A DNA stretch of 64,000 bases from Candidatus Bathyarchaeota archaeon (GCA_963702095.1 OY969706.1:2112001-2176000); one strand, 5' to 3'; positions 43,077 to 63,058 are shown, counted from the first letter of the stretch. Made by a program: numbers and translations. Notes: generated from the sequence alone by a model not told the origin.

Positions 43077-43220
43077 ATGAAAATACGATTTGTCAGTCCA
43101 GAGAAACCTCAAGTTCTAAGCCTAGAGGCTTTAATTTTTGCTACACTGGACAGCGTAAATCATGTTAGTCAAACGGTGCAGTTGAAAACCGGCGGCACAG
43201 GGCTGGCTGAAAAAACATGA
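43077..43220 (+). CDS. Putative 47-aa leader micro-ORF coupled (ATGA) to GT2
   Basis: MKIRFVSPEKPQVLSLEALIFATLDSVNHVSQTVQLKTGGTGLAEKT; TTTAAAAA about 26 nt upstream. Confidence 0.45.
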   Translation: MKIRFVSPEKPQVLSLEALIFATLDSVNHVSQTVQLKTGGTGLAEKT

Positions 43221-44479
43221 TAGTAACTGACATTATCTCAATTGTGCTCTTGGCAGTTTTGCTTTTTTGGTCAGTGTATAACGGCTCAATCATCTACATC
43301 GGAATAAGGAATAAACGCAGAGTCCAAGCTGCTGCCCTTGTCTCCGCCGAATCCAAAAACGCCTCAGGGGAAACACCGAAGTTTTCATTAATCGTGCCTA
43401 CAAAAAACGAGGAAACCGTAATCCGACGGTGCCTAGACGGCATACTCAACTTAGACTACCCCAAAGACAAAATACAAGTAGTCGTAGTCGACGGAAAGTC
43501 TGCTGACAGAACCTGCGAGATATGCAGCGAATACGAGGAAAAGTATCCGGGCATGTTTAAAGTGATCTCAGAGCAAACCACACATGGCAAACCAGCAGCT
43601 CTCAATCTTGCCTTATCATACGTCAACGGCGACGTAGTGGGCGTTTTTGACGCTGACAGCCTACCCGAAAAAGATGTCCTCGCAAAAGTCAGCAAATACC
43701 TAGACGACAAAAAAATCATCGCTATACAAGGCATGACCACATCCATAAACGAGAAAAGCAACGCCCTCACCCGAGTTATCTCCATGGAAGAAAAAGCGTG
43801 GTTCCAAATGTTAATGAGTGGACGCGAAAGGCTACAGTTGTTTGTGCCCCTCACAGGAAGCTGCCAATTTGTCAGACGCAACGTACTAGAAGAATTGGGC
43901 GGCTGGGACGAAAACTCATTAACCGAAGACGTAGAGTTAGCGTTGCGTCTTGTTGAGAAAAATCACATTATCAAGTATGCACCGGATGTTTGTTCTGGAC
44001 AGGAAACCCCGAGTGTTCTGAAAAGTCTTGTTAAGCAGAGGGTACGCTGGTACCGGGGATACATGGAAACCGCTTTGAAGTATGGGCGGCTCCTTGACAG
44101 GATTAACAAGCGGACGGTGGACGCTGAAGTCTCTTTGGCAGGACCTTACATGATGGTGGTTTCACTGTTAAGCTACATTAACTGGTTTATAGTAGCTGTG
44201 TTTCTCTCCCAGAGTACACCGATCCTTAACTTTACGGGTTTAGTAATCGCTTTAACCGCGGTGTCGTTGGTCTCCATCGGAGTGGGCTTAATCGCCGCCG
44301 AGAAACCGATCAGGCTTCGAAACATTTTGTGGATACCCTCAATCTATGTTTATTGGTTACTGCAGATGTTCATTGCAGGCTGGGCATTCCTCAAACTGGT
44401 TTTCAGAAGCAAAAGAGACTGGACTAAAACCAGCAAAGACGGCTCCGTGGCTCCGATGACAAAAAACAGTCCTCTATGA
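43217..44479 (+). CDS. Processive-type membrane GT2 (cellulose synthase-like)
   Basis: VVDG.S, FDADS, TEDVE, QRVRW. Confidence 0.88.
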   Translation: MIVTDIISIVLLAVLLFWSVYNGSIIYIGIRNKRRVQAAALVSAESKNASGETPKFSLIVPTKNEETVIRRCLDGILNLDYPKDKIQVVVVDGKSADRTCEICSEYEEKYPGMFKVISEQTTHGKPAALNLALSYVNGDVVGVFDADSLPEKDVLAKVSKYLDDKKIIAIQGMTTSINEKSNALTRVISMEEKAWFQMLMSGRERLQLFVPLTGSCQFVRRNVLEELGGWDENSLTEDVELALRLVEKNHIIKYAPDVCSGQETPSVLKSLVKQRVRWYRGYMETALKYGRLLDRINKRTVDAEVSLAGPYMMVVSLLSYINWFIVAVFLSQSTPILNFTGLVIALTAVSLVSIGVGLIAAEKPIRLRNILWIPSIYVYWLLQMFIAGWAFLKLVFRSKRDWTKTSKDGSVAPMTKNSPL

Positions 44480-44661
44480 TAACTTTCAAACTTTGCGTAG
44501 AGGTTTTGGCGGTGAAACAAGTTATCGCCCTGACAAGGGCAAGGGTTTTTAGGATGTCAATCGAACAGATTCAACGGGAAAACCAAATCATGAGTTGGGC
44601 AAACAGTAAGCATACGCCTAGTTTCAAAAGACCCACTTTAAAGCATAACTGGGAGATTTAG
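44476..44661 (+). CDS. Small hypothetical ORF between GT2 and GT4
   Basis: ATGA overlap with the upstream GT2; ends 5 nt before GT4. Confidence 0.4.
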   Translation: MITFKLCVEVLAVKQVIALTRARVFRMSIEQIQRENQIMSWANSKHTPSFKRPTLKHNWEI

Positions 44662-44666
44662 AGCGC

Positions 44667-45809
44667 TTGAGGGTTTGCTTTGTATCCTCCTACCCTCCTA
44701 ACTGGGCTAGACTAAGCGAGTACGCGGAGAATCTTGTCGAGGAACTAGCCAAGCGTCCCAATATAGAGACGATATATGTTTTAGCGGATAAAACAGACAG
44801 CAACGAGAGCCTCAAGAATAATCCTAAAATTCAGGTAATTCGGGCGTGGAACCCAGATGACCCCTTTTCGATTGCCAAAATTCTCTTTTCAGCATTAAAG
44901 TTGCACCCTGATGTTCTCCATTTTAACATGCACTTTCAGAGTTTTGGCAGAAACAGAGTCGTGAACTTCAGCGGGTTCTCACTTGTTCTGCTCTCGCGGA
45001 TGTTTGGCTTGAAAACAGTGGTTCTTCTCCATAATTTGGGGGAAAAAGTTGATTTAAGAAAAATGAACCTCAACCCCAGCCTTTTAAATAAAGTCGGCAT
45101 CCTATTAGCAACAAAAATATTACTCACCGCTCAAAACGTTGTTGTACCAGTCCAATCATACGCTCAATACATCAAAACCCATCATAAATACAAAAACGTC
45201 AAATACATACCGCATGGAACCAATACATGCAACAGCCCAAAAAAAGATTGTGAGGACAAAAAGATTCTATTGTTTGGCCACATGGGACCATCAAAAGGAA
45301 TTCCAGTGATGTTTGAGGCCTTCAAAAAAATCGCAAAAGAACAAAAAAACGTGACCCTTATCGTAGCTGGAAACAGTCACCCAAATTATTCTCACTTCAT
45401 AGACAGCCTCAAAAAAATTGCGCCGCCGAACACCAAGTTCCTAGGCTATATCCCCGAAGAAAACCTCTCAAGCGTATTCAACGATGCAGACGTCGTTGTG
45501 TTACCTTACCTGATTGCTACGGGAACAAGCGGGGTATTTCACATGTCGTGCGGTTATGGTCGACCAGTGGTAGCCTCAGATTTGCCTGAGATTAGGGAGT
45601 TAGTCAACGATGGAGCCGCGGCGATTCTGGTGCCCCCCGGCGACGCTGAAGCATTGAAGAATGCGGTGCTGCAGGTGCTCTTCGACAAAGACGTCGCAGA
45701 AAAAATTAGCAAACAAAACCTATGTTTTGCCCAAAAAGAAAGCTGGAGCTCAGTCGCCAGGGCTTACGAAGATGTCTATTTTGAGTTGCAGCACACTAAA
45801 CATCCATAA
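44667..45809 (+). CDS. GT4 glycosyltransferase
   Basis: SSYPP, IPHG, SKG, ADVVVLPY, SGV...G.PVVASD. Confidence 0.88.
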   Translation: MRVCFVSSYPPNWARLSEYAENLVEELAKRPNIETIYVLADKTDSNESLKNNPKIQVIRAWNPDDPFSIAKILFSALKLHPDVLHFNMHFQSFGRNRVVNFSGFSLVLLSRMFGLKTVVLLHNLGEKVDLRKMNLNPSLLNKVGILLATKILLTAQNVVVPVQSYAQYIKTHHKYKNVKYIPHGTNTCNSPKKDCEDKKILLFGHMGPSKGIPVMFEAFKKIAKEQKNVTLIVAGNSHPNYSHFIDSLKKIAPPNTKFLGYIPEENLSSVFNDADVVVLPYLIATGTSGVFHMSCGYGRPVVASDLPEIRELVNDGAAAILVPPGDAEALKNAVLQVLFDKDVAEKISKQNLCFAQKESWSSVARAYEDVYFELQHTKHP

Positions 45810-45867
45810 AGCGTAACGTTGCCAGTAGGTAATCTTTAATTGCGTAGCCACGATTTTCCTTTTTACC

Positions 45868-47358
45868 TTGAATTCAAAAAAGCTACTGTTTCCTCTGCTT
45901 GCCTTTGTAATCCCCATGTTAGTCAGGTTTGTTCCTGAAATCATAATGGGTCCATACGTTGTAGGGTTCGACACGTTGGCGCATTATGTGCCGACAACGC
46001 TGCTGTGGCAGCAAGGCCAGGTGAACCTGTGGAGTTTCATCGGCACAGCACCTCTGCTCTACACGATAACAGTAGGGTTGACGGCTATAACTGGTTCAGT
46101 CATGGTTGTACTCAAAGTGCTCCCGTCTGTACTGCTGGGGTTCTTGGGGCTGTCAATTTATGTTTTTGCAAGGCGAGGCTTATCCTGGTCCACTAAGAAA
46201 AGCTTGGTGCCAGCCCTAGTTGGAACCCTCTATTTTGTGGCGCTACGGATTTCATGGGATGCACTGCGAGAAGAAATCGCTTTGATCTTCTTCTTTGTTG
46301 TCCTAACAGCAATCGCCGCCATGTCAACCAAGAAGTTTTCGTGGAAAAACTACCTTTTATTCGCGTTGGCGCTGGCTGCAGTAGTATTAGCTAATCAGGT
46401 AGTCGCTGTGTTGGTGTTGGGGGTTGTGTTATTCACCGTCATCTACAAGCTGTTCCACGAAGGACGCCTAAACGCTGCGCGGTTGGTGGCTTTCTCATTG
46501 CCGGCGGTAGCGTTGTTTTTAGCAGTTTTCTATTTGAGTCCCTCTATCCCCGAGTACCGTTTAATCTTCGGTTTCCCCAGCACCCCAGACGGTTGGCTGG
46601 CGCTGTTTGGCTACTCATCCTACTTAGACATGCTGGGCAGCACAGCAGTGTTTATCCTGTTTTGCTTCTTACCCCTTCTGCCTTTGGCGCTTTTGAGCGT
46701 GCGAAGCTTCAAGAACTTCCAGATGCGTATCTGGATTCTTTTGATTTTGCTGGCTGCTTTGGTGCCTATGGTTAGCCCAAGCAACCTGCGTTTGGTTATG
46801 CTGCTGAGTTATCCGCTGGTGTTTTTCGCCATTGAAGGGGCAAGCACGTTGCAATCAGTCCGTTGGAAGCGTTTTAAAAAACCGCTTTTGGGAGTGGGAA
46901 TGGCGTATCTTGTCGCTGTCACTGCGGTGTTCAGTTTAGGGTTTATGGTGTTGCCTTCGTCGTCGCCTTTTCCCTACTTTGTAGCGGGAGAATTCAACAG
47001 TCACATCTACCAGATACCCTCGTCTATGCTGCAAAACACCGTTTCCATAGAGGATTGCCCAGACGCGGCTAACGTGGTTCAATGGGTCAAAAACCACATG
47101 GACGCAGACTCGGTGCTGTTGACGCATAGGGCTTTCTACGGATGGGCGCTTCCAGAAATAAATTCCAGCCAAATAGTCTTGTACGAATACGATAATCCCG
47201 CCGACGCCGCAGGCAGCCTAACAGGCAATTACAGCCATGTCTACTTGGTTTGGTGGATAGACGGGGAAGGCTGGTACGGTTTACCATCGGTGCCCTCGGT
47301 GTTTCAACAGGTCTATCAGAGCGGTAACATGGCAGTTTACACGTATGCACCCAGCTAG
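45868..47358 (+). CDS. Multi-pass membrane protein (possible GT-C fold)
   Basis: VGFDTLAHY in the first loop, about 12 TMs, C-terminal soluble domain. Confidence 0.6.
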   Translation: MNSKKLLFPLLAFVIPMLVRFVPEIIMGPYVVGFDTLAHYVPTTLLWQQGQVNLWSFIGTAPLLYTITVGLTAITGSVMVVLKVLPSVLLGFLGLSIYVFARRGLSWSTKKSLVPALVGTLYFVALRISWDALREEIALIFFFVVLTAIAAMSTKKFSWKNYLLFALALAAVVLANQVVAVLVLGVVLFTVIYKLFHEGRLNAARLVAFSLPAVALFLAVFYLSPSIPEYRLIFGFPSTPDGWLALFGYSSYLDMLGSTAVFILFCFLPLLPLALLSVRSFKNFQMRIWILLILLAALVPMVSPSNLRLVMLLSYPLVFFAIEGASTLQSVRWKRFKKPLLGVGMAYLVAVTAVFSLGFMVLPSSSPFPYFVAGEFNSHIYQIPSSMLQNTVSIEDCPDAANVVQWVKNHMDADSVLLTHRAFYGWALPEINSSQIVLYEYDNPADAAGSLTGNYSHVYLVWWIDGEGWYGLPSVPSVFQQVYQSGNMAVYTYAPS

Positions 47359-49790: not shown

Positions 49791-50702
49791 TTAAGACGGT
49801 CCCGTATAGCTGGTTTTTTGGGTAAGCTCCAGTTTTAGCTGTTCAAGCGCCCTATCCATCGAGAGAGGTTTACAGTTCAGCGCCCGCTGCGCTTTGGAGG
49901 TGTCAAGCGAGGAGTCCTCTGGGCGTTTTGCGGGCCAAGAAAACTGTGAAGACACTGCCTTATCGATTAAGCTCTTGTCAAGACCGAAGACATCGGCGAT
50001 TTTCTCTGCAAACTCAAAGCGGCTAACCCTCGTAGCCCCACACAGATGGTAAACCCCTGTTAAGCGGCGCTCAACAACTTCCAAAGTCATCTCCGCCAAG
50101 CTCGTATTGAGCGTTGGCGTGTTCCATTGGTCAGTAACGATTTTCACGCGGTCACCCTTGCGGAGGGTTTCTATTAGCCATAGTGCAAAGTTGACTTTTC
50201 CAGCGGCAGGCGTTGAACCGTAAATCACGCTGGGGCGGGCGATTAAGAAGTCGGTTTCTGGGAGGGTTTGCACGATTTCTTCTGCGAGAAGCTTGGTTAA
50301 CCCGTAGTAGTTGGTGGGTTCAGGTGAGTCTGATTCGACGTAGCATCCTTTTTCGCCGCTAAACACGTAGTCGGTGGATATGTAGATTAAGAATGAACCG
50401 GTTTTTTGGCTGGCGTGGGCGATGTATTTTGTGCCGTCCACGTTGACTCTCCAAGCCAACGCCTTATCCAACTCGCATTTATCCACGTCCGTTAGGGTGG
50501 CTGCGTGGACGACGACGTCTGGTTTGATGGTTCTGAAGGCTTCCTCGACCCGGGCTCTGTCGGAGATGTCGAGTTTAACAAAGTTGCCGTAGACAGAGAG
50601 GCTTTGGATGTCTGATGAGTAAACCTCGATGCCTCTACTAAGGGCCAGCTGCGCCAGTTTCGAACCGTACAGTCCGCTGGCGCCAGTGATTAGGAGCTTC
50701 AA
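49791..50702 (-). CDS. rmlD: dTDP-4-dehydrorhamnose reductase
   Basis: ITGASGLYG, YISTDYVF, YGLTK, AKRP.DSSL. Confidence 0.93.
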   Translation of the reverse strand: MKLLITGASGLYGSKLAQLALSRGIEVYSSDIQSLSVYGNFVKLDISDRARVEEAFRTIKPDVVVHAATLTDVDKCELDKALAWRVNVDGTKYIAHASQKTGSFLIYISTDYVFSGEKGCYVESDSPEPTNYYGLTKLLAEEIVQTLPETDFLIARPSVIYGSTPAAGKVNFALWLIETLRKGDRVKIVTDQWNTPTLNTSLAEMTLEVVERRLTGVYHLCGATRVSRFEFAEKIADVFGLDKSLIDKAVSSQFSWPAKRPEDSSLDTSKAQRALNCKPLSMDRALEQLKLELTQKTSYTGPS

Positions 50703-51706
50703 TGGAAACCGCCCAGCTTCCAAGGCGTCGGGTGCAATATTACTTCAGTGGCAAACGGCAGCCACCAATGCTCGTTTTTAAGGTACCACTGCACCGTCGA
50801 CTCCAAAGCATCTTCGAAACTTGCCTTCGGCTTCCAGCCTAACTCATGGCGGGTTTTGCTGGAGTCCAAACTGTAGCGGATGTCGTGTCCGGGTCTGTCT
50901 TCAACGAAGGTTATTAGATTTTCAGGTTTGTTGAGTTGAGCGATGATTTTTTTGGCGATGTCTATGTTAGCGACTTCGTTACCTGCGGAGACATTGTAGA
51001 TTTCGCCTGGTTCCCCCTTTTCCAGTACAATGTTTACGGCTTCACAGTGATCAGTAACATAGATCCAGTCTCGGATGTTGGCGCCTTTGCCGTAGATGGG
51101 AATCGGCAGGTCGCGGAGGGCGCGGATGACGGTTTTAGGAATCAACTTCTCAGGAAGCTGATACGGGCCGAAGTTGTTGGTGCAACGGGTGATGGAGACG
51201 TTTAAGCCGAAGGTTTTGTGGTAAGCAAGAACAAACATGTCTGCGGCGGCTTTGGAGGCGGAGTAAGGGTTAGAGGGTTTTGGCGGCGTGTTTTCAGTGA
51301 ATGACCCTTCAAGTGCTTCACCGTAGACTTCGTCGGTGGAAACTTGAACAAACCGCGCCTTATGGTTATGCCTTCGTATAGCCTCCAAAATGGTGAATGT
51401 GCCCAACGTGTTGTTTTGCAAAAACACGTTTGGGTCTGCGATGCTTCGGTCAACATGCGTCTCCGCGGCGACGTTAACTATTGCATCCACCTGGTGAACT
51501 AAGCGGTTTATCAGTTGAGGGTTGCAGATGTCGCCTTTGATGAATGTATAGCGTTTATCGTTCTCTATATCGTGCAGGTTCGCGGGGTTGGCGCCTATCC
51601 CCACTTTGTCCACGTTTATCAATTCAATGTCAGAGTGCATTGCAAGCATATGCCTGCAAAAGTTGCTTCCAATAAAACCTAAACCACCTGTAACTAACAC
51701 TTTCAT
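50699..51706 (-). CDS. rmlB: dTDP-glucose 4,6-dehydratase
   Basis: GGLGFIGSNF, AAETHVDRSI, STDEVYG, YSASK, DRPGHD.RY. Confidence 0.96.
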   Translation of the reverse strand: MKVLVTGGLGFIGSNFCRHMLAMHSDIELINVDKVGIGANPANLHDIENDKRYTFIKGDICNPQLINRLVHQVDAIVNVAAETHVDRSIADPNVFLQNNTLGTFTILEAIRRHNHKARFVQVSTDEVYGEALEGSFTENTPPKPSNPYSASKAAADMFVLAYHKTFGLNVSITRCTNNFGPYQLPEKLIPKTVIRALRDLPIPIYGKGANIRDWIYVTDHCEAVNIVLEKGEPGEIYNVSAGNEVANIDIAKKIIAQLNKPENLITFVEDRPGHDIRYSLDSSKTRHELGWKPKASFEDALESTVQWYLKNEHWWLPFATEVILHPTPWKLGGFH

Positions 51707-51712
51707 AGTTCA

Positions 51713-52237
51713 TCACTTATGCGGCGGGTAATTCCAATCCCAGCTTTTACCAACACGAACATCATTCGTTTTGCCGTTTATGCTTTTGGGGATGAGTGTT
51801 GGATCATTCCATTCTCGGCGGTCTTCGTCAGGGTCGGCGGAGTCATAGAGATTAGTGGTGAAGTAAAGCAGCAACGCAGCTTCATCACCTAATGCTTTAA
51901 ACCCATGCCAATAGTGGCCTGGCACACGAACAAACTGCAGATTAGAGCCGCTGGAGACAACTTCGTCTAATTCACCGGTTTTATCGTCGAAGACACAGAT
52001 TTTAACTGAACCTTTCAGCAGCAAAAAATAGTCCACCTGACCCTTTAGGTGGCGGTGCCATGCACGGATAACACCTGGATAAGTAGAAGAGTGATTAGCC
52101 TGCACTATATCGTCTCCTGCGAAAAGGTCTTGCCAGTCTTTGCGCATGACTTCGCAGAAGAAGCCTCTTTCGTCTACAAAACGTTTTATCGGTCTAACTC
52201 TTACGCCTTCCAACATCAAGTTATCCTTGCCTATCAA
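51713..52237 (-). CDS. rmlC: dTDP-4-dehydrorhamnose 3,5-epimerase
   Basis: DERGFF, IRAWHRH, WHGF. Confidence 0.9.
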   Translation of the reverse strand: MIGKDNLMLEGVRVRPIKRFVDERGFFCEVMRKDWQDLFAGDDIVQANHSSTYPGVIRAWHRHLKGQVDYFLLLKGSVKICVFDDKTGELDEVVSSGSNLQFVRVPGHYWHGFKALGDEAALLLYFTTNLYDSADPDEDRREWNDPTLIPKSINGKTNDVRVGKSWDWNYPPHK

Positions 52238-52281
52238 ACATATCGATTAAAAATATTTATAATGTTTCCCTATTTTGGTTG

Positions 52282-53340
52282 CTAAACCTCCAACTCTGAG
52301 TAGTCGCCTACATGCAACTTCAGGGTGCGGTTGCGCTGGTTACGGGTTACTTTCGCGTTTCTACCGATTAAACTCTCTTCAAGCCGTTCAACGTCTCTGA
52401 TGGTAACGTGGTCTTGGACAACACAGTATTCGAGGTTTGAATTGATTATTTTAGTCTCGTCTCCGACGCTTGTGTAGGGTCCGATATAGGAGTGTTCGAT
52501 CAGCACATCCTTTCCGATTATGCACGGTCCACGGATTGTGCTGTCCACGATTTGTGCGTTGGAGTCCACTTTGACTCTCCCATCGACTTTACTGTTAGTT
52601 ATGGTTCCTTTGATGTCCCGCTGTATGTATTCATCAAGTATTCTTGCATTTGCCGATAAGATGTCGTCTTTTTTGCCAGTGTCAAGCCACCAGGAATTAA
52701 GAATCTCTGCTTTAACGGAAAAGCCCATGTTTATCATTTCTTGTATGGCATCAGTGATTTCAAGTTCTCCGCGCCAAGAAGGCTTAATCCGCTCAATTGC
52801 TTCATGGATTTTATTTGAGAATAAATAGGTACCTATGATAGCGAGGTTTCCTATGGATGTTTTGGGTTTTTCGACCAGTCGCACGATGTTGCCTTTTTCG
52901 TCCAGTTGTGCTATGCCAAAACTCGACGGGTTTTCTACCTCTTTTAAGATGATGAGGGCGTCGAGGTGTTCATTCTTGAATTTTTTGACAAAAGTCTGCA
53001 ATCCTTGACCTGTGACGTTGTCGCCAAGGCACATAACAAAGGAATCTTTTGCCAAAAAACGCTTAGCAGTCTTTACTGCATGCGCTAAACCCAACGGTTC
53101 CTGAGGAATATAGCAGACATTAAGACCCCAGTTTACCCCATCAGCCACATAGTCCTCGACATAATGCCCTGTTTCAGGGGCCGTTATGATGCCTATTTTT
53201 TTTATGCTAGTTGCTGCCACCTGATCCAAAACGTATCCCAAGATGGGTTTGTTAGCTACGGGGATAAGCTGTTTAGCGCAGGTAAAGGTTAGTGGACGGA
53301 GTCGAGTACCTTTGCCGCCGCTGAGAACAAGTGCTTTCAT
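52282..53340 (-). CDS. rmlA: Glucose-1-phosphate thymidylyltransferase (long form)
   Basis: GGKGTRLRPLT, AKQLIPVANKP, SWRGELEITDAI, beta-helix C-terminus. Confidence 0.94.
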   Translation of the reverse strand: MKALVLSGGKGTRLRPLTFTCAKQLIPVANKPILGYVLDQVAATSIKKIGIITAPETGHYVEDYVADGVNWGLNVCYIPQEPLGLAHAVKTAKRFLAKDSFVMCLGDNVTGQGLQTFVKKFKNEHLDALIILKEVENPSSFGIAQLDEKGNIVRLVEKPKTSIGNLAIIGTYLFSNKIHEAIERIKPSWRGELEITDAIQEMINMGFSVKAEILNSWWLDTGKKDDILSANARILDEYIQRDIKGTITNSKVDGRVKVDSNAQIVDSTIRGPCIIGKDVLIEHSYIGPYTSVGDETKIINSNLEYCVVQDHVTIRDVERLEESLIGRNAKVTRNQRNRTLKLHVGDYSELEV

Positions 53341-53774: not shown

Positions 53775-55343
53775 TTATTTAGGCATAAACTTCTCAAGAA
53801 GGTTCAGTATCGCAAAAACGGGTTTTCTCAGAGGGCCAAGTCCGCTTACGATTTGGCGAATACTCGTCAGGTCATTTCTATCTATTGTCCGAGTAACTAC
53901 TGCAATCAATAAGAACACTACCGTAAACACCACAACTCCAATCACCAATTGCACTGGACTACTGAAGGGCAACAAGTTAAGCAAGAGATAAGTCAAGATG
54001 CCTGTAATGCCTGAGGAGAATAAAATCTTTGCCGATGAAGCCCAATCCAAAGATACGCCATAGTGTTGCTTTATGAACCGCAGGCTTAAGAGCAGACTCG
54101 GAACACTGACAATTATGGTTGTTACTATTAAGCCTATAATGCCGAACTGGGAAATCAAAATGAAGCTCAAGGGAAAACCGATTACAACCGTAATTATCGA
54201 GAGTTTAAGCGTATATTTTGTATCACCTTGACTGTTTATGAGGCTTGAGACGCTTAGGCTACCTGCCGCCGCAAAAAGGTAGGTAACCGCCAACAAGGCA
54301 AGAAACAGGGGGGCTTGGAAGTAGCTGTTTTGGAAGATAGTGCTGATTGCCGGTTGAGAAAGAACCATAACCATAACGGTGACAGGCATAACTATGAGTG
54401 CAGAGTACTTGACGGAGTATTGAAAAACGTTCTTGAGAACATCATAATCTTTTCGGTAATTTAGTTTTGAAAAGGCTGGCAGAAGCATTGTTGTCACTGG
54501 AACAGCAAAGAAATTGATTAAGATGACAAAGTTTAAGGCGACTGAGTAATTGCCTATGGCGCTGTTATCGATTACGAAGATTGCCATGATTATGCTGTAG
54601 AACTGGGTTAGAAAACCAGTCAAGATATTGCCTATAGAAAGAGGGAAACCATACTTGAGCATAGTTTTTGTTGTGGACACTAACTCTAATTTTGCGTCCG
54701 TCTGCTTGGGCAGAGAAGCATACATAGTGTACATAAGCAGTAAGCCGGTTATGCCAGCAACTAACACCGCTACGGAGAAACCAACGATTGCACCCAGCGT
54801 TCCTAAGCCTAAAAGTACTAGGCCAATTATGAGGGCAGTTTTAACTAAAGATTGAACAATAAGCATGACACTGTTAAGATGCATTCGCTCCAGACCGGTG
54901 AAAGAGGCGGTTGCAGCATTAACTAGTGCACCGGACAGAATAAACAACGAAGCGACTTGGATTAATTGAACTATAGCTGGTCTTTGGAAGACATCCGCGA
55001 GAAAACCTGAGATAGCAATAGAGAAGACCGTTAACGCTAAACCTAAAATAATTTCGAACAAGACACCCGAAACAAAAATGCTGCGGATTTTGGCAAAGTT
55101 GTTTTCACCGTTGTACTGGGCTGAATATTTCACCATGGCCATGTTGACACCCCAGTCTCGGAATGTAATGATAACGTTAGGCGCTGCCACGGCGATTGCG
55201 TAGATACCCATATTGTCGGTGCCTAATAAATTAGCGATGATTATGGTGGCAACGGCTGAGATAACTGTGGAAACGACAAGGCCCCAGAGCAGGTGAAAGC
55301 CGCCTTTCGCTGAAACCTTAGCCATCTCAGTTGCCTTGCTCAT
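53775..55343 (-). CDS. Polysaccharide flippase (Wzx/MOP)
   Basis: About 14 TMs with typical MOP pattern; glycan cluster context. Confidence 0.85.
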   Translation of the reverse strand: MSKATEMAKVSAKGGFHLLWGLVVSTVISAVATIIIANLLGTDNMGIYAIAVAAPNVIITFRDWGVNMAMVKYSAQYNGENNFAKIRSIFVSGVLFEIILGLALTVFSIAISGFLADVFQRPAIVQLIQVASLFILSGALVNAATASFTGLERMHLNSVMLIVQSLVKTALIIGLVLLGLGTLGAIVGFSVAVLVAGITGLLLMYTMYASLPKQTDAKLELVSTTKTMLKYGFPLSIGNILTGFLTQFYSIIMAIFVIDNSAIGNYSVALNFVILINFFAVPVTTMLLPAFSKLNYRKDYDVLKNVFQYSVKYSALIVMPVTVMVMVLSQPAISTIFQNSYFQAPLFLALLAVTYLFAAAGSLSVSSLINSQGDTKYTLKLSIITVVIGFPLSFILISQFGIIGLIVTTIIVSVPSLLLSLRFIKQHYGVSLDWASSAKILFSSGITGILTYLLLNLLPFSSPVQLVIGVVVFTVVFLLIAVVTRTIDRNDLTSIRQIVSGLGPLRKPVFAILNLLEKFMPK

Positions 55344-55457: not shown

Positions 55458-56690
55458 TTAACGTGTTCCCCATTTTTTGTCTTTCAAGGTTAGCAGACTG
55501 TAGACGAAGATGGGTACGCTGATTAAAGAGAAAATCAACTGGAAAGTAACCCTTGACGTCCATGCATGAGTGTACTTGCGAGCATACAACGCGTATAGCA
55601 ATCCCAGAAGCGATAAACTGAAAATATAGAATACTGTTCCCATCCATCCCCCCTCTATGACAAATGGACAGATAAATAGCATAAATGTTAGAAAACCGTA
55701 ATTCACGAAATGCACAAGAGTACTAAGATAGAAAAAGATGCTTTTAGATTTGCGTTTGTAAGCAAAAGTCATCATGTAGAGGGTTTCACGTATCCAGCTT
55801 TTGGTCCAGCGGACTTGTTGCTTGAGGAATTTCTTGGCAGTGTCTGGAACTTCAGTTCGGGCGACTGCGTCCATCTGATAAACAGCCTCATACCCCTCGC
55901 GAATAATCAAGTTGGTTATTGCACGGTCAACCCCCGCTGTAACCTCTAAGCCCAAGAATTTACCGTAAAGCCACTCATTCTCTATCTCGGGCGTTATAGC
56001 AGAGCGCCGATGAGCTGAAAAAGCCCCCGCACAACAAGACACCATACCTATTTCCGATTCAGCGCCACGGTAAACCCTAAACCCGATGAAATACCAGACT
56101 TCTTGAAATTTTGTGAGAAGATTCTTGCTCCAGTTTTCAACTTGCAAGTGTCCGCTCACTGAGCCAACTTCCGGATTCTTAAACGGTGCAACTACGTTAA
56201 GAAGCGAGTTTTCTTCTAAGATTGTGTCCGAATCCAAGAAGACCATGATTTCACCTGTGGCGTTTTTAATGCCTTCCATGCGAGCGAATTTGTTGCCTCG
56301 GTTTTTTTCAAAGGAAATTATTTTTACTTCTTTTGGGTCAACTATTTTGCTTAGTTGCTTTACGGAGTCATTGGCGCTTCCGTCGTCGACGACTACGATT
56401 TCTTTTTTGCCTGCAGGGTACTTGGCTTTTTGAGTTGACTCTATAACTCGCTTTAAAACGTCGAGGGGTTCGTTGAAAACTGCGAGGACAATGCTGACTT
56501 TGGGTTGATAGTCTGGATCAACGGATACGGATTTGTACTTAACAGATAGGGTCAAAACTATACCAAGCACCACCGACGTCCCGATGGCATAGATAAACAG
56601 GGCGGGATTGTAAATGTGCGCTAACCTGTACAGTAGCAGCAGAACTATAGCGATTATTACTGTTGCAATCAACACTTTCTTATGCTGCAT
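55458..56690 (-). CDS. Class I hyaluronan-synthase-like GT2
   Basis: VDDGS, FLDSDT, CCAGAFSAHRR, KFLG...GVDRAITN, TEVP..FLKQQVRWTKSWIRE. Confidence 0.8.
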   Translation of the reverse strand: MQHKKVLIATVIIAIVLLLLYRLAHIYNPALFIYAIGTSVVLGIVLTLSVKYKSVSVDPDYQPKVSIVLAVFNEPLDVLKRVIESTQKAKYPAGKKEIVVVDDGSANDSVKQLSKIVDPKEVKIISFEKNRGNKFARMEGIKNATGEIMVFLDSDTILEENSLLNVVAPFKNPEVGSVSGHLQVENWSKNLLTKFQEVWYFIGFRVYRGAESEIGMVSCCAGAFSAHRRSAITPEIENEWLYGKFLGLEVTAGVDRAITNLIIREGYEAVYQMDAVARTEVPDTAKKFLKQQVRWTKSWIRETLYMMTFAYKRKSKSIFFYLSTLVHFVNYGFLTFMLFICPFVIEGGWMGTVFYIFSLSLLGLLYALYARKYTHAWTSRVTFQLIFSLISVPIFVYSLLTLKDKKWGTR

Positions 56691-56704
56691 ACCTGCAACC
56701 AGCC

Positions 56705-57556
56705 CTAGGACCCACGCTGCTTTACCAGTGGCACAAGCGGCGCTGGCTCAAGGGGCTTCTTTTGTTGACAGAAATGTTGCACGTAGGCATCGTTTGTCTG
56801 CATGGCTCCTTTCAAGAGTCCAAACTCAGAGGACAAGTTTGATAGAAAAGCGGTGTCTTTGGGGAGACATTCTTTGCCGATTCCGTCGCGTGCCTCAAGC
56901 AGTTTAACGTTCCACTTTGTGTTTATGGCTTCTCGCCATTCCTCAAAGTCCAAGCCGTTTTTGCTTGCGATGAGTTTGAGTTCCTCAACAAATGCTATTT
57001 CAACGTAGCGGTGAGCATTTTCAGCAATTTTGCTTGCTTCGGCTATTTCTAAAGTAGACACTAAATGTACGGGAATTTCGAGTTTACTGTAGAACTCCAT
57101 GGCTTTCCGGAGGGTCTCAACGTCGTAAGCGCCTAAAACCCGGATTTGTTTGACGCCATGGTTTTCTTGGTCATCTTCCCACCATCGATGGGGGCAAACT
57201 GCGACGAAGCTTAGACCATGTTTCAAACTCATTTTCCTTGCTGTTCCCACAGCGAGGGTTGATTCGAAACAGACTAATGCGTCATTGTTCAAGGCGCTGA
57301 TTTGCCTGCAACAACTATCGATGGCGGACATATCGATCATGCCGTTTCGGTAATAAGTATTAACGCAGACGACATAGACGTCGGCGCGTTGGGGAACAGT
57401 AGAAGAGTCCACGCCATTGTTTAGAGCACGCACTATAGCCTGCTGGTTAATGTCAAATCCGATAACGTGCGGAAAGTATTTCAATGCATACCGTGCAACA
57501 GGCAAGCCGATATTGCCGAGACCCATTATACATACAGTCACTTTCAATCCAGCCAT
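56705..57556 (-). CDS. Short UDP-sugar 6-dehydrogenase (WecC-like) lacking the C-terminal domain
   Basis: GLGNIGLP, FEST, CPHR, SKIAEN, GIGKECLPKD; only 283 aa. Confidence 0.72.
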   Translation of the reverse strand: MAGLKVTVCIMGLGNIGLPVARYALKYFPHVIGFDINQQAIVRALNNGVDSSTVPQRADVYVVCVNTYYRNGMIDMSAIDSCCRQISALNNDALVCFESTLAVGTARKMSLKHGLSFVAVCPHRWWEDDQENHGVKQIRVLGAYDVETLRKAMEFYSKLEIPVHLVSTLEIAEASKIAENAHRYVEIAFVEELKLIASKNGLDFEEWREAINTKWNVKLLEARDGIGKECLPKDTAFLSNLSSEFGLLKGAMQTNDAYVQHFCQQKKPLEPAPLVPLVKQRGS

Positions 57557-57726
57557 CCGAGTGTGCCTTCACTATATTGTTATGAAAATAAATATTTATT
57601 GTAAGCTTGTATCTACAGATATGTATGCACTTTGGCGCTAAACGGATTAATTTATTTTCAAAAGTATTTTCTCAACCAATTAAATCCATCAGTTAATAAA
57701 GGAAAAGAAAGCTGCCTCCATACCTG

Positions 57727-59070
57727 TTACTGCCCCAAACCAATTGCAAGGTAATTGAGTTTATCCCTAAACAATTCAGGGTTAAAGATGCGTCGACCAT
57801 CCACTATATTTGGCTGTTTCATAGCGGCTAAGAAATCTTGAGGAGTCAAACTTTTGAATTCCGGCCACTCAGTCACAATTATGCAGCCGTCCGCACCTTT
57901 CAAACAATCAATCGCTGAGACGGCGTAGGCAATTTTGTCTTGGAAAACTGCTTTTGCAGTTTGCTCAGCAACAGGGTCGTATGCAGTTACCACCGCTTCT
58001 TCTGTCAACAGTTGATTGATTATGGGGATGACCCGTGCTTCACGCATGTCGTCTGTGTTCGGCTTAAACGCTAAACCTAGAATCGCGATTTTTTTGCTCT
58101 TCAAATCACCAAGTTGCTGCTTGCACAGTTCCACGGCTTTAAGCGGCTGATGCTTGTTAACTTTCTCCACTGAATCTAGCAGTTCAGGCGTGTAACCGAA
58201 TTGTTTAGCGCACGCAATCAGGGCTTTGACATCTTTGGGAAAGCAGGAACCGCCGTACCCTAAGCCTGCATCAAGGAAAAGGGGTCCAATTCGTTTGTCT
58301 AAACCCATGGCTGTCGCCACAACTCTGACGTCCGCACCCGGAATTTCCTCACATATATTAGCGATGGTGTTTATGAAGCTGATTTTTGTGGCAAGCATGG
58401 CGTTGCTGGCATATTTTATAAGTTCAGCTGTTGAGAGGGTCGTTCGAATTATCGGCGGCACATGGGCGCTGTAGAAGTCCCGGTAGAGTTCTTCAAGTTT
58501 GTCAGCTGCGGTTTTGTCTTGTGAACCTATGACTACGCGGTCGGCGTTTAAGGTGTCATGGAAAGCTGAGCCTTGACGTAGGAACTCGGGGTTCATGCAT
58601 AAACCGAAGTGTTCACCGCATTTTTTACCTGATTCCTTCTCGAGAATGGGCAGGACCACGTTTTGGGTTGTTCCAGGTATGACAGTGCTTTTTATGATGA
58701 CGATGTGGTAGCGGTTTTTTTGTTTGAGGGCTTTGCCTATGCCTGTTGCCGCGTTTTCTATGTATTTGAGGTCTATACTGCCGTCTGAGTTACTGGGTGT
58801 ACCTACCGCCACGTAGGTGAAGTCAGTTTCCATTACTGCTTTATCTATCTCGTTAACTAAACCGCTAAGATTTCCTTTCCAGATAATTTCAGATAACTTC
58901 TCCTGCAGTTCAGGCTCAAAAAAAGGCGGAATTCCCTCATTGATTTTGCCGATTTTTTCGGCGTCAATGTCACATGCAATAACCGAGTAACCTTTACTTG
59001 CTAAACCCACTGAAGTACATAAACCGACATAGCCTACACCGATAACTGAAATTCTAAAGTGTTTACTCAA
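57727..59070 (-). CDS. ugd: UDP-glucose 6-dehydrogenase
   Basis: GVGYVGL, KSTV, NPEFLRQG, GYGGSCFPKD, AFKPNTDDMRE. Confidence 0.94.
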   Translation of the reverse strand: MSKHFRISVIGVGYVGLCTSVGLASKGYSVIACDIDAEKIGKINEGIPPFFEPELQEKLSEIIWKGNLSGLVNEIDKAVMETDFTYVAVGTPSNSDGSIDLKYIENAATGIGKALKQKNRYHIVIIKSTVIPGTTQNVVLPILEKESGKKCGEHFGLCMNPEFLRQGSAFHDTLNADRVVIGSQDKTAADKLEELYRDFYSAHVPPIIRTTLSTAELIKYASNAMLATKISFINTIANICEEIPGADVRVVATAMGLDKRIGPLFLDAGLGYGGSCFPKDVKALIACAKQFGYTPELLDSVEKVNKHQPLKAVELCKQQLGDLKSKKIAILGLAFKPNTDDMREARVIPIINQLLTEEAVVTAYDPVAEQTAKAVFQDKIAYAVSAIDCLKGADGCIIVTEWPEFKSLTPQDFLAAMKQPNIVDGRRIFNPELFRDKLNYLAIGLGQ

Positions 59071-59163
59071 CCCTTAAACCCACCAGATGACCTTAACTCA
59101 GAGTTTAGTTATAACATTAAATATATATCGGTTAAGATAAGAAAAGAAGAGAAGTGGACAGCG

Positions 59164-60033
59164 ATGGTTCAGAAAGTAATCATTCCAGCGGCAGGATTAG
59201 GAACACGACTGTTTCCAGCAACCAAGGAACAGCCTAAAGAAATGTTGCCAATATTCTCAAAAACAGCCCTTAGTGACATGACGGTTAAGCCCGTTGTGCA
59301 ACTTGTGTTTGAAGAGTTGCATGAAGCGGGGTTAAGGGAATTCTGTTTTGTTGTAGGACGAGGCAAACGTGGCATAGAAGACCATTTCACACCCGACGTT
59401 GACTGCATAAGAACCCTCGAGGGTATGGGAAAAAGTGGACAGGCCTCCGATTTGGAGGGGTTTTACAGTAAACTTGAAACTTCAACCATTATGTGGGTTA
59501 ACCAGCCTGAACCCAAGGGATTCGGTAACGCAGTGTTGATGGCTCAGCCCTTTGTTCAGAATGAAAGCTGTTTAGTTCACGCTGGAGATAGCTGTATTAT
59601 ATCCAAGAACATGGATTACGCAAAAAAACTACTTGAGGGTTTCGAGCACTTCAATGCAGACGCAGCCTTTTTGGTCTTAGAGATTGAAAATCCAAAACAA
59701 TATGGGATTGTAGTGGGTCAAGAAGTTGAGCAGGGTTATATAAAAGTAGAATCAGTGGAAGAAAAACCAGAAAAGCCTAAAACCAATTTGGCAATCATGG
59801 CGATGTATGTATTTCGCCCCGTAATTTTTAAAGCATTAGAAGCGACCAAACCGGGAAAAAACGGTGAAATCCAGTTAACGGATGCCATCCAGAAACTGGT
59901 GGATTGGGGACTCAAAGTATACGCAGTTAAACTCGATAAATCCTATGAGCATTTAGATATTGGTAGCCCCGAAAGATACTGGTCAGCCCTGGAATTATCG
60001 TACAATCAATTTTGTAAGAGAACAAAACAATGA
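59164..60033 (+). CDS. galU: UTP-glucose-1-phosphate uridylyltransferase
   Basis: PAAGLGTRLFPATK..PKEMLP, EKP, GEIQLTDAI. Confidence 0.92.
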   Translation: MVQKVIIPAAGLGTRLFPATKEQPKEMLPIFSKTALSDMTVKPVVQLVFEELHEAGLREFCFVVGRGKRGIEDHFTPDVDCIRTLEGMGKSGQASDLEGFYSKLETSTIMWVNQPEPKGFGNAVLMAQPFVQNESCLVHAGDSCIISKNMDYAKKLLEGFEHFNADAAFLVLEIENPKQYGIVVGQEVEQGYIKVESVEEKPEKPKTNLAIMAMYVFRPVIFKALEATKPGKNGEIQLTDAIQKLVDWGLKVYAVKLDKSYEHLDIGSPERYWSALELSYNQFCKRTKQ

Positions 60034-61043
60034 TAGATAGAATAATCAGCGAAGAAATAGAAGGCATTCGAAACGCCGTTAAAGAAGACGCCTTCGCAGG
60101 CAAGAATGTGCTTGTTACTGGCGGCGCAGGATTCATTGGCAGTTGGCTCTGTGACGTCCTAATCAGGTTTGGCGCAAGCGTAACAGTAGTCGATAACTTT
60201 TCTACCGGACGAATAAAAAACATTGACCATCTAATATCAAGCAATAACTTTAAGCTAATCAACGCAGACATCTGTGATTTCGCCGCCGACCAAAAGATCG
60301 ATTTTATCTTTCACATGGCAGCCCATGCCTCACCTGACGAGTACATGGCACACCCGATTGATACATTGCATACTAGCGCATTCGGTACCCAAAAAATCGC
60401 TGAATTAGCCAGAAAAAACGATGCAGCACTCCTGTTTGCGTCAACTTCTGAGGTTTATGGCGACGCTGAAATCGTGCCGACCCCTGAGACTTACTGGGGA
60501 AGAGTTAACCCGATTGGTCCCCGTTCCTGCTATGATGAGGGGAAACGTTTTGCTGAAGCTCTGTTAATGGCTTATGTTAAACAGTATGGGTTGAAAGTTA
60601 GGATGTCAAGAATTTTTAATTCTTATGGTCCACGCCTGCGAGAAGATGGATTGTATGGAAGGGCTTTGTCACGGTTTGTGCTTCAAGCGTTGACTGGTCA
60701 GCCGATTACTGTTTATGGGGATGGAAAGCAGACTCGATCTTTCTGTTACATTAGCGATACGGTGACTGGGCTGTTACTGTTAGCCGCTAATCAAAAGGCA
60801 GAGGGCGAAGTTGTGAACGTTGGCAGCACAGAGGAAATCACCATTTTAGAGTTAGCTCATAAGATTCAAGAATTAACCAGGTGCCGATCAACCATAACGT
60901 TTAGTCCGTTGCCTAAGGATGATCCAATGAGGCGTTGTCCCGATACTGCTAAACTTGAAAACTTAGTCGGCTGGAGGGCTGGCGTCGGGTTTGAGGATGG
61001 ATTAAAACGGACTATTACGTGGTTTGCTGACAAGTCGTTTTAG
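60030..61043 (+). CDS. uxs: UDP-glucuronate decarboxylase (UDP-xylose synthase)
   Basis: STSEVYGD, YWGRVNPIGPRSCYDEGKR, RIFNSYGPR, DDPMRRCPD. Confidence 0.92.
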   Translation: MIDRIISEEIEGIRNAVKEDAFAGKNVLVTGGAGFIGSWLCDVLIRFGASVTVVDNFSTGRIKNIDHLISSNNFKLINADICDFAADQKIDFIFHMAAHASPDEYMAHPIDTLHTSAFGTQKIAELARKNDAALLFASTSEVYGDAEIVPTPETYWGRVNPIGPRSCYDEGKRFAEALLMAYVKQYGLKVRMSRIFNSYGPRLREDGLYGRALSRFVLQALTGQPITVYGDGKQTRSFCYISDTVTGLLLLAANQKAEGEVVNVGSTEEITILELAHKIQELTRCRSTITFSPLPKDDPMRRCPDTAKLENLVGWRAGVGFEDGLKRTITWFADKSF

Positions 61044-61534: not shown

Positions 61535-63058
61535 GTGAAGACACTTTTGCGTAATTATCCTATCAAAAGCTTAACCATAACGCTAATTGGCTTCTTGATC
61601 GTTTGCTGCTTTGGCACAAGTTTCTGCGGTTCAACAGAAGAAAACGCCACCAGCGACTCCTCAGCCTTCTGGCTAAACCTAGCCAACAACGCATGGAACT
61701 ACTTCCAACCCGGAGCAGGCATAAACCCCACCACGGGACTACCCCAAAACGGCGTCGGAGCAACCTACTTCACCGACTGGGACACAGGACTCTACATCCA
61801 AGCAATAATAGACATGGAGCAACTGGGTCTGCTAAGTAGCGGTAGCATATGGGGTGCAGACGACCGAATCAATAGGGTGCTGACTTTTCTGGAAACCCGC
61901 CCGTTGATGGCTGACGGTTTACCCTACCTTGCATACAACTCTTCCACCGGCAAAGAAGCTGATAAAACGCAGCAGGTTGCCACAGACGAAGGAAACCTCT
62001 TTGTCGCCCTAAAAAACCTTGAAACCGCCAAACCAGCCCTAAAACCCCGAATCGACAACATTGTCTACAACCTAACCAACTACACCCGACGTGAAATCTC
62101 AATCGATATCGTACTTGGCCAACTGCAAAAAGGCACACGACCACTAAACAGTTACGACTTCTATGTAACTTACGGGTTTGCAGGATATTGGCCTCAAAGG
62201 TTTAGCGCTGAAGCAGACGCCATCCTCAACCTTACGGTTACTGCGCCCAAAATAAACTATCAGGGAATAGAATTGCCTGCTGTGAAAATAGTCTCAGAGC
62301 CGCTGTTGCTCTCAATCTTTAACCTTCCTCAAGTTGACTCGCGGGTTGTGGCTTTGATGAAGCAGGCGTATTTGGCTCAGGAGGCACGTTATAACTTGAC
62401 AGGTAAGTTTACTGCTTTCAGTGAAGGCCCAGCAAATGGCTTGTTTGTGTGGGAGTGTGTGGCAATGCCTGATGGTCGCATGTGGGTAGTGCAGACCGGC
62501 GACTGTAACGATGTAGATACAGATGTGGATGTGACGCCGGTTGTGTTTTTGAAGGCGGCACTTGGGTTTTTAGCTGTTTATAATACGCCGTACGCTCGGG
62601 AGATGGTTAGTTATTTGCTTGAGCGGCAGCCATCGATTTCATTGGGCTACTACACAGGGAGTAACGAGGACGGTAACGTCATCACTGGGTCGAGGGATGT
62701 GGGCAACGCTTTAATTATCAGCGCATCAAAATACGCCATCAACAACCAAGTCTATGTGCCATTATCCGTCTATCCCCCACCTACAGGTACCCCTTCAATG
62801 ATCCCTGCCAATCCAAACCCAACCATCAGCAGCGCCCAATCCACAAAGTCAAGTCCATCACCTTCCAATACACTTAACCCTTCCGCAACATCGGTCAATC
62901 CAACTCAGGTTTTGCCCACCAACAATCTAAACCAAACGCCTATCCCTGTGCATGCACAAAATGCACTTTATGTGGCTTCTGCCTCAGCAGTCATAGGGTT
63001 ACTGGTTATTGTTAGTGTTTGGTATTTGAGGAAGGTTAAGTTGTCTGTTTTTGTTTAG
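61535..63058 (+). CDS. Secreted, membrane-anchored DUF3131-like putative glycoside hydrolase with S/T/P linker
   Basis: AWNYF...NPTTGL...TDWDTG.Y, LPYLAYN, SEP..L, QEARY..TG..TAFSE; C-terminal TM. Confidence 0.65.
   Translation: MKTLLRNYPIKSLTITLIGFLIVCCFGTSFCGSTEENATSDSSAFWLNLANNAWNYFQPGAGINPTTGLPQNGVGATYFTDWDTGLYIQAIIDMEQLGLLSSGSIWGADDRINRVLTFLETRPLMADGLPYLAYNSSTGKEADKTQQVATDEGNLFVALKNLETAKPALKPRIDNIVYNLTNYTRREISIDIVLGQLQKGTRPLNSYDFYVTYGFAGYWPQRFSAEADAILNLTVTAPKINYQGIELPAVKIVSEPLLLSIFNLPQVDSRVVALMKQAYLAQEARYNLTGKFTAFSEGPANGLFVWECVAMPDGRMWVVQTGDCNDVDTDVDVTPVVFLKAALGFLAVYNTPYAREMVSYLLERQPSISLGYYTGSNEDGNVITGSRDVGNALIISASKYAINNQVYVPLSVYPPPTGTPSMIPANPNPTISSAQSTKSSPSPSNTLNPSATSVNPTQVLPTNNLNQTPIPVHAQNALYVASASAVIGLLVIVSVWYLRKVKLSVFV

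Follow-up and report, generated by a model that had tools for sequence, protein, structure and literature searches.

Among the described systems closest to the locus reported here are the class I hyaluronan synthases (HAS), for which part of the text of PMC11750622 gives DxD, GDDR, QxxRW and WGTR as conserved motifs. Passages of PMC12987647 describe how, in CvHAS, K177 pairs with D201 and, in a proofreading pose, joins R341 in sandwiching the glucuronic acid (GlcA) carboxylate, which is also framed by the loop that leads into GDD; the start of the GDD helix frames the donor C6 pocket (passages of PMC12987647 and PMC11750622). In XlHAS1, according to the same part of PMC11750622, replacing the conserved active-site K218 abolishes activity, and arginines of IF1 lie near GlcA-2. 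We infer that XlHAS1 K218 is the same Lys as CvHAS K177. In a second kind of system, a UDP-N-acetylglucosamine (UDP-GlcNAc) 6-dehydrogenase and a deacetylase are encoded in clusters with the chitin synthase genes of chloroviruses and fungi (PMC5122149, in part). A literature search found no paper joining Bathyarchaeota with hyaluronan, or Bathyarchae* with chitin synthase. We analysed a stretch of 64,000 nucleotides (the window) from a Candidatus Bathyarchaeota archaeon (GCA_963702095.1, OY969706.1:2112001-2176000), part of a single 2.94-Mb contig, in which positions 55458-61043 had been read as an archaeal hasA/hasB/hasC-like set, with a class I HAS-like family 2 glycosyltransferase (hereafter GT2) beside Ugd and GalU (the original prediction). 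Translation of the window revealed five genes in this interval, not four: GT2, Ugd, the GalU-like protein and the UDP-xylose synthase UXS are all present where they had been placed, as confirmed by translation and family matches, and a short nucleotide-sugar dehydrogenase (sDH), overlooked until now, lies between ugd and the GT2 gene. GT2 has the motifs and fold of the HAS/NodC family, occupies a separate phylogenetic position, carries clade-specific substitutions and forms a tightly spaced gene pair with sDH. We consider it slightly more probable than an even chance that the two genes constitute a module, an archaeal HAS/NodC-like synthase with its short dehydrogenase, that makes an acidic N-acetylhexosamine polymer.

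The sequence motifs that had suggested a HasA-like enzyme are all readable in the translation of GT2: GKFLG...GVDRAITN at residues 243-260, TEVP...LKQQVRWTKSWIRE at residues 279-302, and SCCAGAFSAHRRS at residues 218-230. GVD (253-255) occupies the place of the GDD or GED of relatives, with the second Asp, D255, kept. The motif set comprises D153-x-D155 (DSD), G253-V-D255-R, Q291-Q-x-R294-W295 (QQVRW) and the C-terminal W407-G-T-R410, and hydropathy analysis indicates two N-terminal and three C-terminal hydrophobic helices. Since D255, DxD, QxxRW and WGTR are intact, GT2 is probably active. The protein matches, well beyond chance, Pfam Glycos_transf_2 (2.3e-26) and Chitin_synth_2 (4e-17). Its AlphaFold model, built from a 106-sequence alignment, has a pLDDT of 92.2 and a pTM of 0.90, and the 13 best folds in the PDB are all CvHAS or XlHAS1 (TMq 0.67-0.80, CvHAS reaching 0.80). 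We conclude that the 410-residue GT2, of the HAS/NodC/chitin-synthase group, is embedded in the membrane and is an inverting, probably processive synthase; its architecture is that of class I HAS and NodC, and it is an orthologue of neither.

These matches invite the explanation that GT2 is a true hyaluronan synthase, Ugd (in the role of HasB) and GalU (in that of HasC) feeding UDP-GlcA to an enzyme that alternates GlcA and GlcNAc like class I HAS. The closest solved structures are HAS by sequence as well as by fold (CvHAS 2.9e-32, XlHAS1 6.5e-27, chitin synthases only about 1e-7), and 'hyaluronan synthase' is the JGI automatic name of five of the 13 close orthologue clusters. However, NodC of R. 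leguminosarum matches the same structures equally well (XlHAS1 2.1e-34, CvHAS 8.5e-30); for a Bacillus HasA-type protein the corresponding values are 6.4e-38 and 4.1e-35. Because NodC equals GT2 in its similarity to HAS, this resemblance cannot separate HAS from NodC; nor can the HAS-only fold matches, since no NodC structure was among the PDB folds compared. NodC itself provides the best NCBIfam model (TIGR04242, 1.7e-50), in a collection where a NodC model is present and a HasA model absent. The alignment is full length, and GT2 and NodC are equal in length and end at the same motif, in keeping with a second explanation, that GT2 is a chitin or chito-oligosaccharide synthase which, as NodC and chitin synthases, uses UDP-GlcNAc only, the dehydrogenases serving other glycans. 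The score, however, is 172 bits against a cut-off of 550, compared with 717 bits for a real NodC and 210 bits for a Bacillus HasA-type control. These comparisons thus place GT2 in the broad HAS/NodC group, with no finer assignment.

Phylogeny was then the check by which the original prediction could be judged, and it went against it. The family comprises 485 representatives at 50% identity (E<=1e-30). We assembled 240 sequences, including GT2, homologues both near and remote, the top 150 representatives and Bathyarchaeia paralogues, and removed 12 with less than 75% profile coverage, leaving 228 rows. As references we used six proteins from Bacillaceae, one of them the pXO1-type HasA, along with three NodC, an Enterococcus/Lactococcus plasmid glycosyltransferase, and two giant-virus HAS-like proteins (XlHAS1 match 4.7e-77) as stand-ins for CvHAS; IcaA, PgaC and a second GT2-type protein of the window (43217-44479) were the outgroups. 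In all three trees (FastTree, 228 rows; IQ-TREE LG+G4, 91 rows; LG+C20 mixture, 45 rows), GT2 and its 45-92%-identical relatives form one clade with a support of 100. All the named references, Bacillus HasA-type, NodC and giant-virus HAS-like, fall in another clade (support 99, 99 and 98), outside of which the GT2 clade always lies, joining weakly (80-89) with a second Bathyarchaeia clade. In approximately unbiased (AU) tests, forcing the GT2 clade together with the Bacillus HasA type costs 73.4 log-likelihood units, with a modest p-AU of 0.025, and forcing it together with NodC costs 74.4 units (p-AU 0.0077); both groupings are rejected, which argues against the hyaluronan and the chitin explanation, respectively. 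GT2 groups with neither the HasA-type, the HAS-like nor the NodC proteins. The named members of its clade are archaeal, the closest from Candidatus Bathyarchaeota and the remoter ones from Hadesarchaea, and GT2 is placed by these trees in a separate archaeal lineage. In wider searches, a single-protein search of viral contigs with GT2 returned no relatives, an alignment scan of these contigs gave the giant-virus HAS-like proteins and not CvHAS, and a homologue search from a Bacillus 'hyaluronan synthase' yielded mainly Bacillaceae and related Bacillota, with no streptococcal HasA. A scan of genome contigs with the clade alignment, which used a generic VDDGS pattern, had neither clade members nor streptococcal HasA among the matches listed and was uninformative.

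The separate position of the clade is accompanied by changes in the active site. We compared 25 GT2-clade rows (23 of them distinct) with 200 other family members. Position 133 is Asn in 25/25 clade rows and Lys in 199/200 others; the following residue is Lys in 25/25 and Arg in 184/200. At position 243 the clade has Gly (24/25) and the others Gln (143) or Glu (38 of 200); at position 254, Val (24/25) replaces Asp (164) or Glu (36 of 200); and position 331 is Tyr in all 25 rows and Pro in 123 of the 200. Two of these changes, by which GKR becomes GNK and G(D/E)D becomes GVD, occur in the GT2 clade alone, each at a residue that is near-invariant elsewhere. The aligned residues in CvHAS are K177 for position 133 and, for position 254, D301, which is the first Asp of its GDD. 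The GVD motif, described in the original prediction as keeping the presumed base, is not an isolated departure and is accompanied by loss of the active-site Lys; K134, right after N133, might substitute for it. Of the class I HAS motifs, GDDR reads GVDR in GT2, and DxD, QxxRW and WGTR are present. In addition, at the position matched by eye to R287 of XlHAS1 IF1 through an R-Y-x3-F-x3-R pattern, HAS-type proteins have Arg, NodC has Glu and the GT2 clade has Trp. The predicted donor site of GT2 is unlike that of every characterised relative, and its differences count against a HAS-like recognition of UDP-GlcA. For a hyaluronan synthase, the presence of DxD, the catalytic Asp of GDD, QxxRW and WGTR would be expected, but the Lys that helps bind the GlcA carboxylate in CvHAS and the IF1 Arg are both replaced. 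A chitin synthase fares no better on this point, the K-to-N and D/E-to-V changes being absent from NodC. The substitutions also evoke a third explanation, in which the remodelled pocket takes a non-acidic donor produced by the neighbouring genes, such as UDP-xylose or UDP-glucose, to make a xylan-type, glucan-type or mixed polymer: the GNK and GVD positions line the donor site of CvHAS, one positive and one negative charge are lost, and a Val stands at the donor C6 pocket. Nevertheless, the GNK/GVD signature has no characterised relative with which to compare it.

The gene directly upstream of GT2 encodes a shortened enzyme. sDH contains the NAD-binding (PF03721) and central (PF00984) domains of the UDP-glucose/GDP-mannose dehydrogenase family and no C-terminal UDP-binding domain (PF03720), and scores 140 bits on TIGR03026, under the cut-off of 190. 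The catalytic residues Cys230, Lys176, Asn180 and Asp234 are kept; the catalytic Cys, Lys, Asn and Asp and the Gly-rich NAD motif are invariant in 9/9 sDH sequences, and the nine homologues all end 20-45 residues past the central domain. Its predicted structure (pLDDT 80.5) has nucleotide-sugar dehydrogenases as best folds, and hydropathy shows no transmembrane segment, as befits a soluble protein. The best specific models are UDP-N-acetylmannosamine (UDP-ManNAc) dehydrogenases at about 92 bits, ahead of TviB (51) and of Ugd models (27-37), a preference shared by three other sDH sequences. The possibility that a separate gene supplies the missing C-terminal domain was rejected, as the genome contains no orphan PF03720; a dehydrogenase central-domain match (86 bits) was noted within a 1977-residue open frame at C1:1058190-1058459 of the same genome. 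Short dehydrogenases of this kind were found at 36 places in 31 of the 301 genomes of the class, with open frames of 265-376 residues (two exceeding 330), and the ESM Atlas holds further two-domain clusters of 245-340 residues in Archaea (Nitrososphaerota), Actinomycetota and phages. Nothing relevant to truncated UDP-glucose dehydrogenases in archaea was among the matches listed in a literature search.

The pairing of the two genes is conserved. Searched at E<=1e-40, GT2 homologues occur at 24 places in 18 of the 301 genomes, and sDH adjoins the GT2-family synthase at 12 of these places, one further place being a weak partial match; seen from the dehydrogenase side, 16 of the 36 sDH places adjoin a synthase of the family. 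In the GT2 clade, sDH lies directly upstream and co-oriented at all four loci, namely in the genome studied here, in G193, in G157 and on a Hadesarchaea-type contig (L237). Where the pair occurs, the two genes overlap by up to 13 nt or lie up to 52 nt apart. True orthologues of GT2 (88-92% identity) are confined to G193 and G157, both of the same genus.

The has-like neighbourhood appears less constant. The genes ugd, galU-like and uxs are indeed adjacent in the window, as originally described, and they were seen beside the synthase in two of the four GT2-clade loci, the window and G193. The G193 copy of ugd has a frameshift after about residue 175 and is set apart from the synthase by a 2.7-kb segment with a terminase gene. 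Three open reading frames were observed between sDH and ugd at this 92%-identical locus (L036, G193:C6, 11458-15184): a terminase large subunit (PHROG 2, 1.7e-36), a fragment of a D5-like regulator, and one without PHROG match. The 7.9 kb upstream and 9 kb downstream of the 88%-identical orthologue of G157 yielded no ugd, galU or uxs; rmlA, rmlC and rmlB are still downstream. On L237 the three genes were not found in the 8 kb downstream, the contig ending 0.8 kb upstream, and the rml neighbourhood is not kept. The flippase is next to GT2 in the same order in both orthologous loci (69% identity in L036, 68% in L037), where the rml genes are also kept, with rmlD undetected in L037.

GalU, Ugd and UXS catalyse the three steps from glucose-1-phosphate to UDP-xylose. 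As this is the standard UDP-xylose route, the presence of the three genes is explained without hyaluronan. Likewise, the type 3 capsule of Streptococcus pneumoniae is made by one processive GT2 encoded beside cps3D (Ugd) and cps3U (GalU), and this GlcA-containing polymer is not hyaluronan, so that the combination of ugd, galU and a synthase does not imply hyaluronan. The adjacency on which the has-operon reading was built holds for the window; it was seen in two of the four clade loci and fits an ordinary pathway. Weighed as a whole, with Ugd and GalU-like genes adjoining GT2 on one side and, on the other, a ugd that is frameshifted in G193 and was not found in the G157 flanks and a UXS that points to UDP-xylose, a true hyaluronan synthase appears very unlikely. 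A non-acidic donor, to which the flanking UXS, GalU-like and rml genes would be pertinent, seems unlikely as well: UXS, galU and rml are not kept in L237, ugd, galU and uxs are missing from the G157 flanks where rmlA, rmlC and rmlB remain, and the only constant neighbour, sDH, is of the HexNAc-dehydrogenase type.

Related modules provide hints on the chemistry. In paralogous modules, 7/7 neighbours tested were CE4 polysaccharide deacetylases, in the order sDH-synthase-CE4 in the second Bathyarchaeia clade (4/4 neighbours tested) and sDH-CE4-synthase for remoter synthases (3/3). Such three-gene modules of a short dehydrogenase, a HAS/NodC-like synthase and a CE4 protein were observed at L038, L042, L044, L031, L146, L148, L151, L045 and L046. 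L045 also encodes a 711-residue PL7 alginate-lyase-like protein with LysM domains, and L046 a 1290-residue CE4-LysM-cohesin/dockerin protein beside the synthase. Deacetylases and LysM domains point to N-acetylhexosamine, and lyases of this kind act on uronic acids. By analogy, the related modules suggest a chemistry combining N-acetylhexosamine and uronic acid. The NodB-type deacetylases and LysM proteins would also suit a chitin-type product, yet a neutral polymer explains neither the tight, conserved association with a dehydrogenase nor the presence, in one module, of a lyase of the PL7 type, and no acyltransferase gene and no nodA/nodB-like genes were found in the window. Together with the low NodC score and the rejection of the NodC grouping, this makes a synthase of chitin or chito-oligosaccharides rather unlikely.

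In the wider family, synthases are found beside full-length dehydrogenases of either type, of the Ugd type on an Enterococcus plasmid and of the HexNAc type on two viral contigs. The best plasmid match (L003, E. faecium plasmid NZ_CP034948, 773-3190) is a pair of Ugd-type dehydrogenase and synthase, the latter from a 416-member cluster spread across Lactococcus, Streptococcus thermophilus and Enterococcus. Another Bathyarchaeia genome contains, at L050 (G290:C46, 5170-8375), a 412-residue synthase, a dehydrogenase and a GalU-like gene in the order hasA-hasB-hasC. Its dehydrogenase is a short Ugd-type protein (320 residues, TIGR03026 225 bits) with no C-terminal domain; its synthase keeps GKR and GDDR, has Arg at the position matched to the XlHAS1 IF1 Arg, and is sister to the Bacillus HasA type (SH-aLRT 90 with LG+G4 and with LG+C20, 98 in FastTree). 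The L050 synthase is a better hyaluronan-like candidate than the GT2 of the window.

These results lead us to propose that the functional unit is GT2 with the directly upstream sDH, which keeps its catalytic residues and is devoid of the UDP-binding domain. sDH, closest to UDP-ManNAc/HexNAc dehydrogenases, would supply a C6-oxidised N-acetylhexosamine donor, from which GT2 would build an acidic, beta-linked, N-acetylhexosamine-containing polymer, exported through the transmembrane part of GT2 itself. In the genome studied, UDP-GlcA made by the neighbouring Ugd could serve as an additional donor, and the main role of GalU-like, Ugd and UXS would be as the UDP-xylose route within a larger glycan island, to which the rml genes and the flippase also belong. 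A uronic-acid polymer, as the original prediction had it in its broader form, thus stays plausible, and hyaluronan itself is backed by no discriminating test.

Several points weigh against the proposed acidic N-acetylhexosamine module. First, a short dehydrogenase without synthase is found at 20 of the 36 places, where a protein of roughly 350 residues is often the neighbour and the three such neighbours tested were all DUF354, so the coupling is not exclusive. Second, the domain by which relatives bind UDP is missing from sDH, so that UDP-sugars may not be its substrates at all. Third, a CE4 deacetylase was not found at the window locus, the two PF01522 matches of the genome being far off. 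Fourth, with a full-length Ugd 170 nt upstream of sDH, a GlcA-containing, hyaluronan-like product is possible. The comparisons themselves impose caution: residue equivalences come from sequence alignment; the trees used proxies in place of streptococcal HasA, CvHAS itself, the pneumococcal type 3 synthase and chitin synthases, with SH-like support values only; and the exclusion of the HasA type is the modest one given above. The product assigned to the GT2 clade is the most likely one as read from sequence and gene context. A bolder version of the proposal, which we hold to be fairly improbable, is that the lineage with its two replaced donor-site residues forms an obligate pair with sDH, possibly docked on the synthase, and makes an undescribed acidic amino-sugar exopolymer, an archaeal glycosaminoglycan-like polymer that contains N-acetylhexosaminuronic acid. 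In such an arrangement sDH may dock on the synthase, and substrate binding or hand-over may be shared between the two proteins.

The remaining features of the locus are gathered in Table 1. The sDH stop is 14 nt upstream of the GT2 start, and the flippase gene is 114 nt 3' of GT2. The galU-like gene is transcribed divergently from ugd, and its stop overlaps the start of UXS; its true start is likely M36, at 59164, because the Pfam match begins only at residue 39. Ugd scores 453 bits on TIGR03026 (NCBIfam), above the cut-off of 190, and 475 and 440 bits on the AglM and TuaD models, both under equivalog cut-offs; the GalU-like protein reaches 207.7 bits on TIGR01099 galU, under the cut-off of 326.8. 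The match of UXS to human UXS1 spans residues 25-333, the next families among PDB sequences being at 1e-41 or weaker. The DUF3131 protein, with a hydrophobic segment at each end and a Ser/Thr/Pro-rich linker by hydropathy, found no counterpart among PDB sequences; it is putatively surface-exposed and may belong to the system.

Table 1. Genes in and around the interval 55458-61043, numbered from the first nucleotide of the window
Feature	Position	Strand	Length	Matches and remarks
GT2 synthase	55458-56690	-	410 aa	
sDH, short nucleotide-sugar dehydrogenase	56705-57556	-	283 aa	between ugd and GT2
Ugd, full-length UDP-glucose 6-dehydrogenase	57727-59070	-	447 aa	PF03721 + PF00984 + PF03720
GalU-like UTP-glucose-1-phosphate uridylyltransferase	59059-60033	+		NTP_transferase 2.9e-28, match from residue 39
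UXS, UDP-glucuronate decarboxylase (UDP-xylose synthase)	60030-61043	+		human UXS1 (2b69) E 2.7e-94
MOP/Wzx-type polysaccharide flippase	53775-55343	-	522 aa	Polysacc_synt 1.3e-31
rmlA-rmlC-rmlB-rmlD, dTDP-rhamnose pathway	49791-53340	-		family matches; downstream of GT2
DUF3131 protein	61535-63058	+	507 aa	PF11329 6e-33

Other observations concern the surroundings. A second glycan set at 43217-47358 of the window consists of a PgaC/IcaA-like GT2 (135 bits), a GT4 and a 496-residue protein, possibly a polymerase, that has about 10 or more hydrophobic segments and matches no family. At 37676-39986, a Ku gene has as its neighbour a gene for a LigD-type ligase that includes a phosphoesterase domain; this archaeal genome thus carries an end-joining pair of the bacterial style. 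The sequencing runs listed as containing this DNA were DNA runs with small shares of it, with no RNA run among them. A short dehydrogenase beside DUF354 (PF04007, about 350 residues), with no synthase nearby, was observed at L138, L140 and L141 and at C1:31932-34187 of the same genome as the window, where the dehydrogenase beside the DUF354 gene is a second short one and an epimerase of the WecB type is also encoded; DUF354 had no match among PDB sequences.

Several consequences follow for how such genes are read. The automatic name 'hyaluronan synthase' is not justified for these archaeal genes, and ugd and galU beside such a synthase do not identify its product. A compact two-gene unit, a GNK/GVD synthase with a domain-truncated dehydrogenase, recurs in uncultured sediment archaea, whose surface polymers are essentially undescribed. 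Residues that structural studies of HAS have linked to donor recognition are naturally varied in the GT2 clade, and sDH raises the question of a nucleotide-sugar dehydrogenase working without a nucleotide-binding domain.

Compared with known systems, the locus shares parts with each. The pairing of PgaC/IcaA with PgaB/IcaB resembles the paralogous modules in joining a GT2 synthase to a CE4 deacetylase, but these synthases are far more distant from GT2 (which scores 100 bits on the PgaC_IcaA model) and are without the priming-loop/GDDR region in the alignment. The chitin synthase clusters of chloroviruses, phaeoviruses and fungi, as described in part of PMC5122149, recall the paralogous Bathyarchaeia modules through their synthase, HexNAc-type 6-dehydrogenase and CE4 deacetylase; unlike the GT2 locus, they have synthases of chitin synthase classes, full-length dehydrogenases and a deacetylase. 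NodC resembles GT2 in its full-length model alignment, similar size and topology, and NodB-type deacetylases accompany related archaeal modules; it differs by GKR, GED and WLSR in place of GNK, GVD and WGTR, and by its nodA/nodB context. Class I HAS (CvHAS, XlHAS1, the Bacillus pXO1 type and streptococcal HasA) have, like GT2, a GT-A domain between N- and C-terminal membrane helices, DxD, the catalytic Asp, QxxRW and WGTR, and a dehydrogenase gene next door, the Bacillus HasA type also sharing a similar size and a C-terminal end at WGTR in the alignment. They differ from GT2 by GKR/GDD versus GNK/GVD, by the IF1 Arg versus Trp, and by their separate clade, streptococcal HasA not being among the sequences compared. 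Finally, the partner of class I HAS is Ugd, whereas the conserved partner of GT2 is a truncated dehydrogenase of the HexNAc type.

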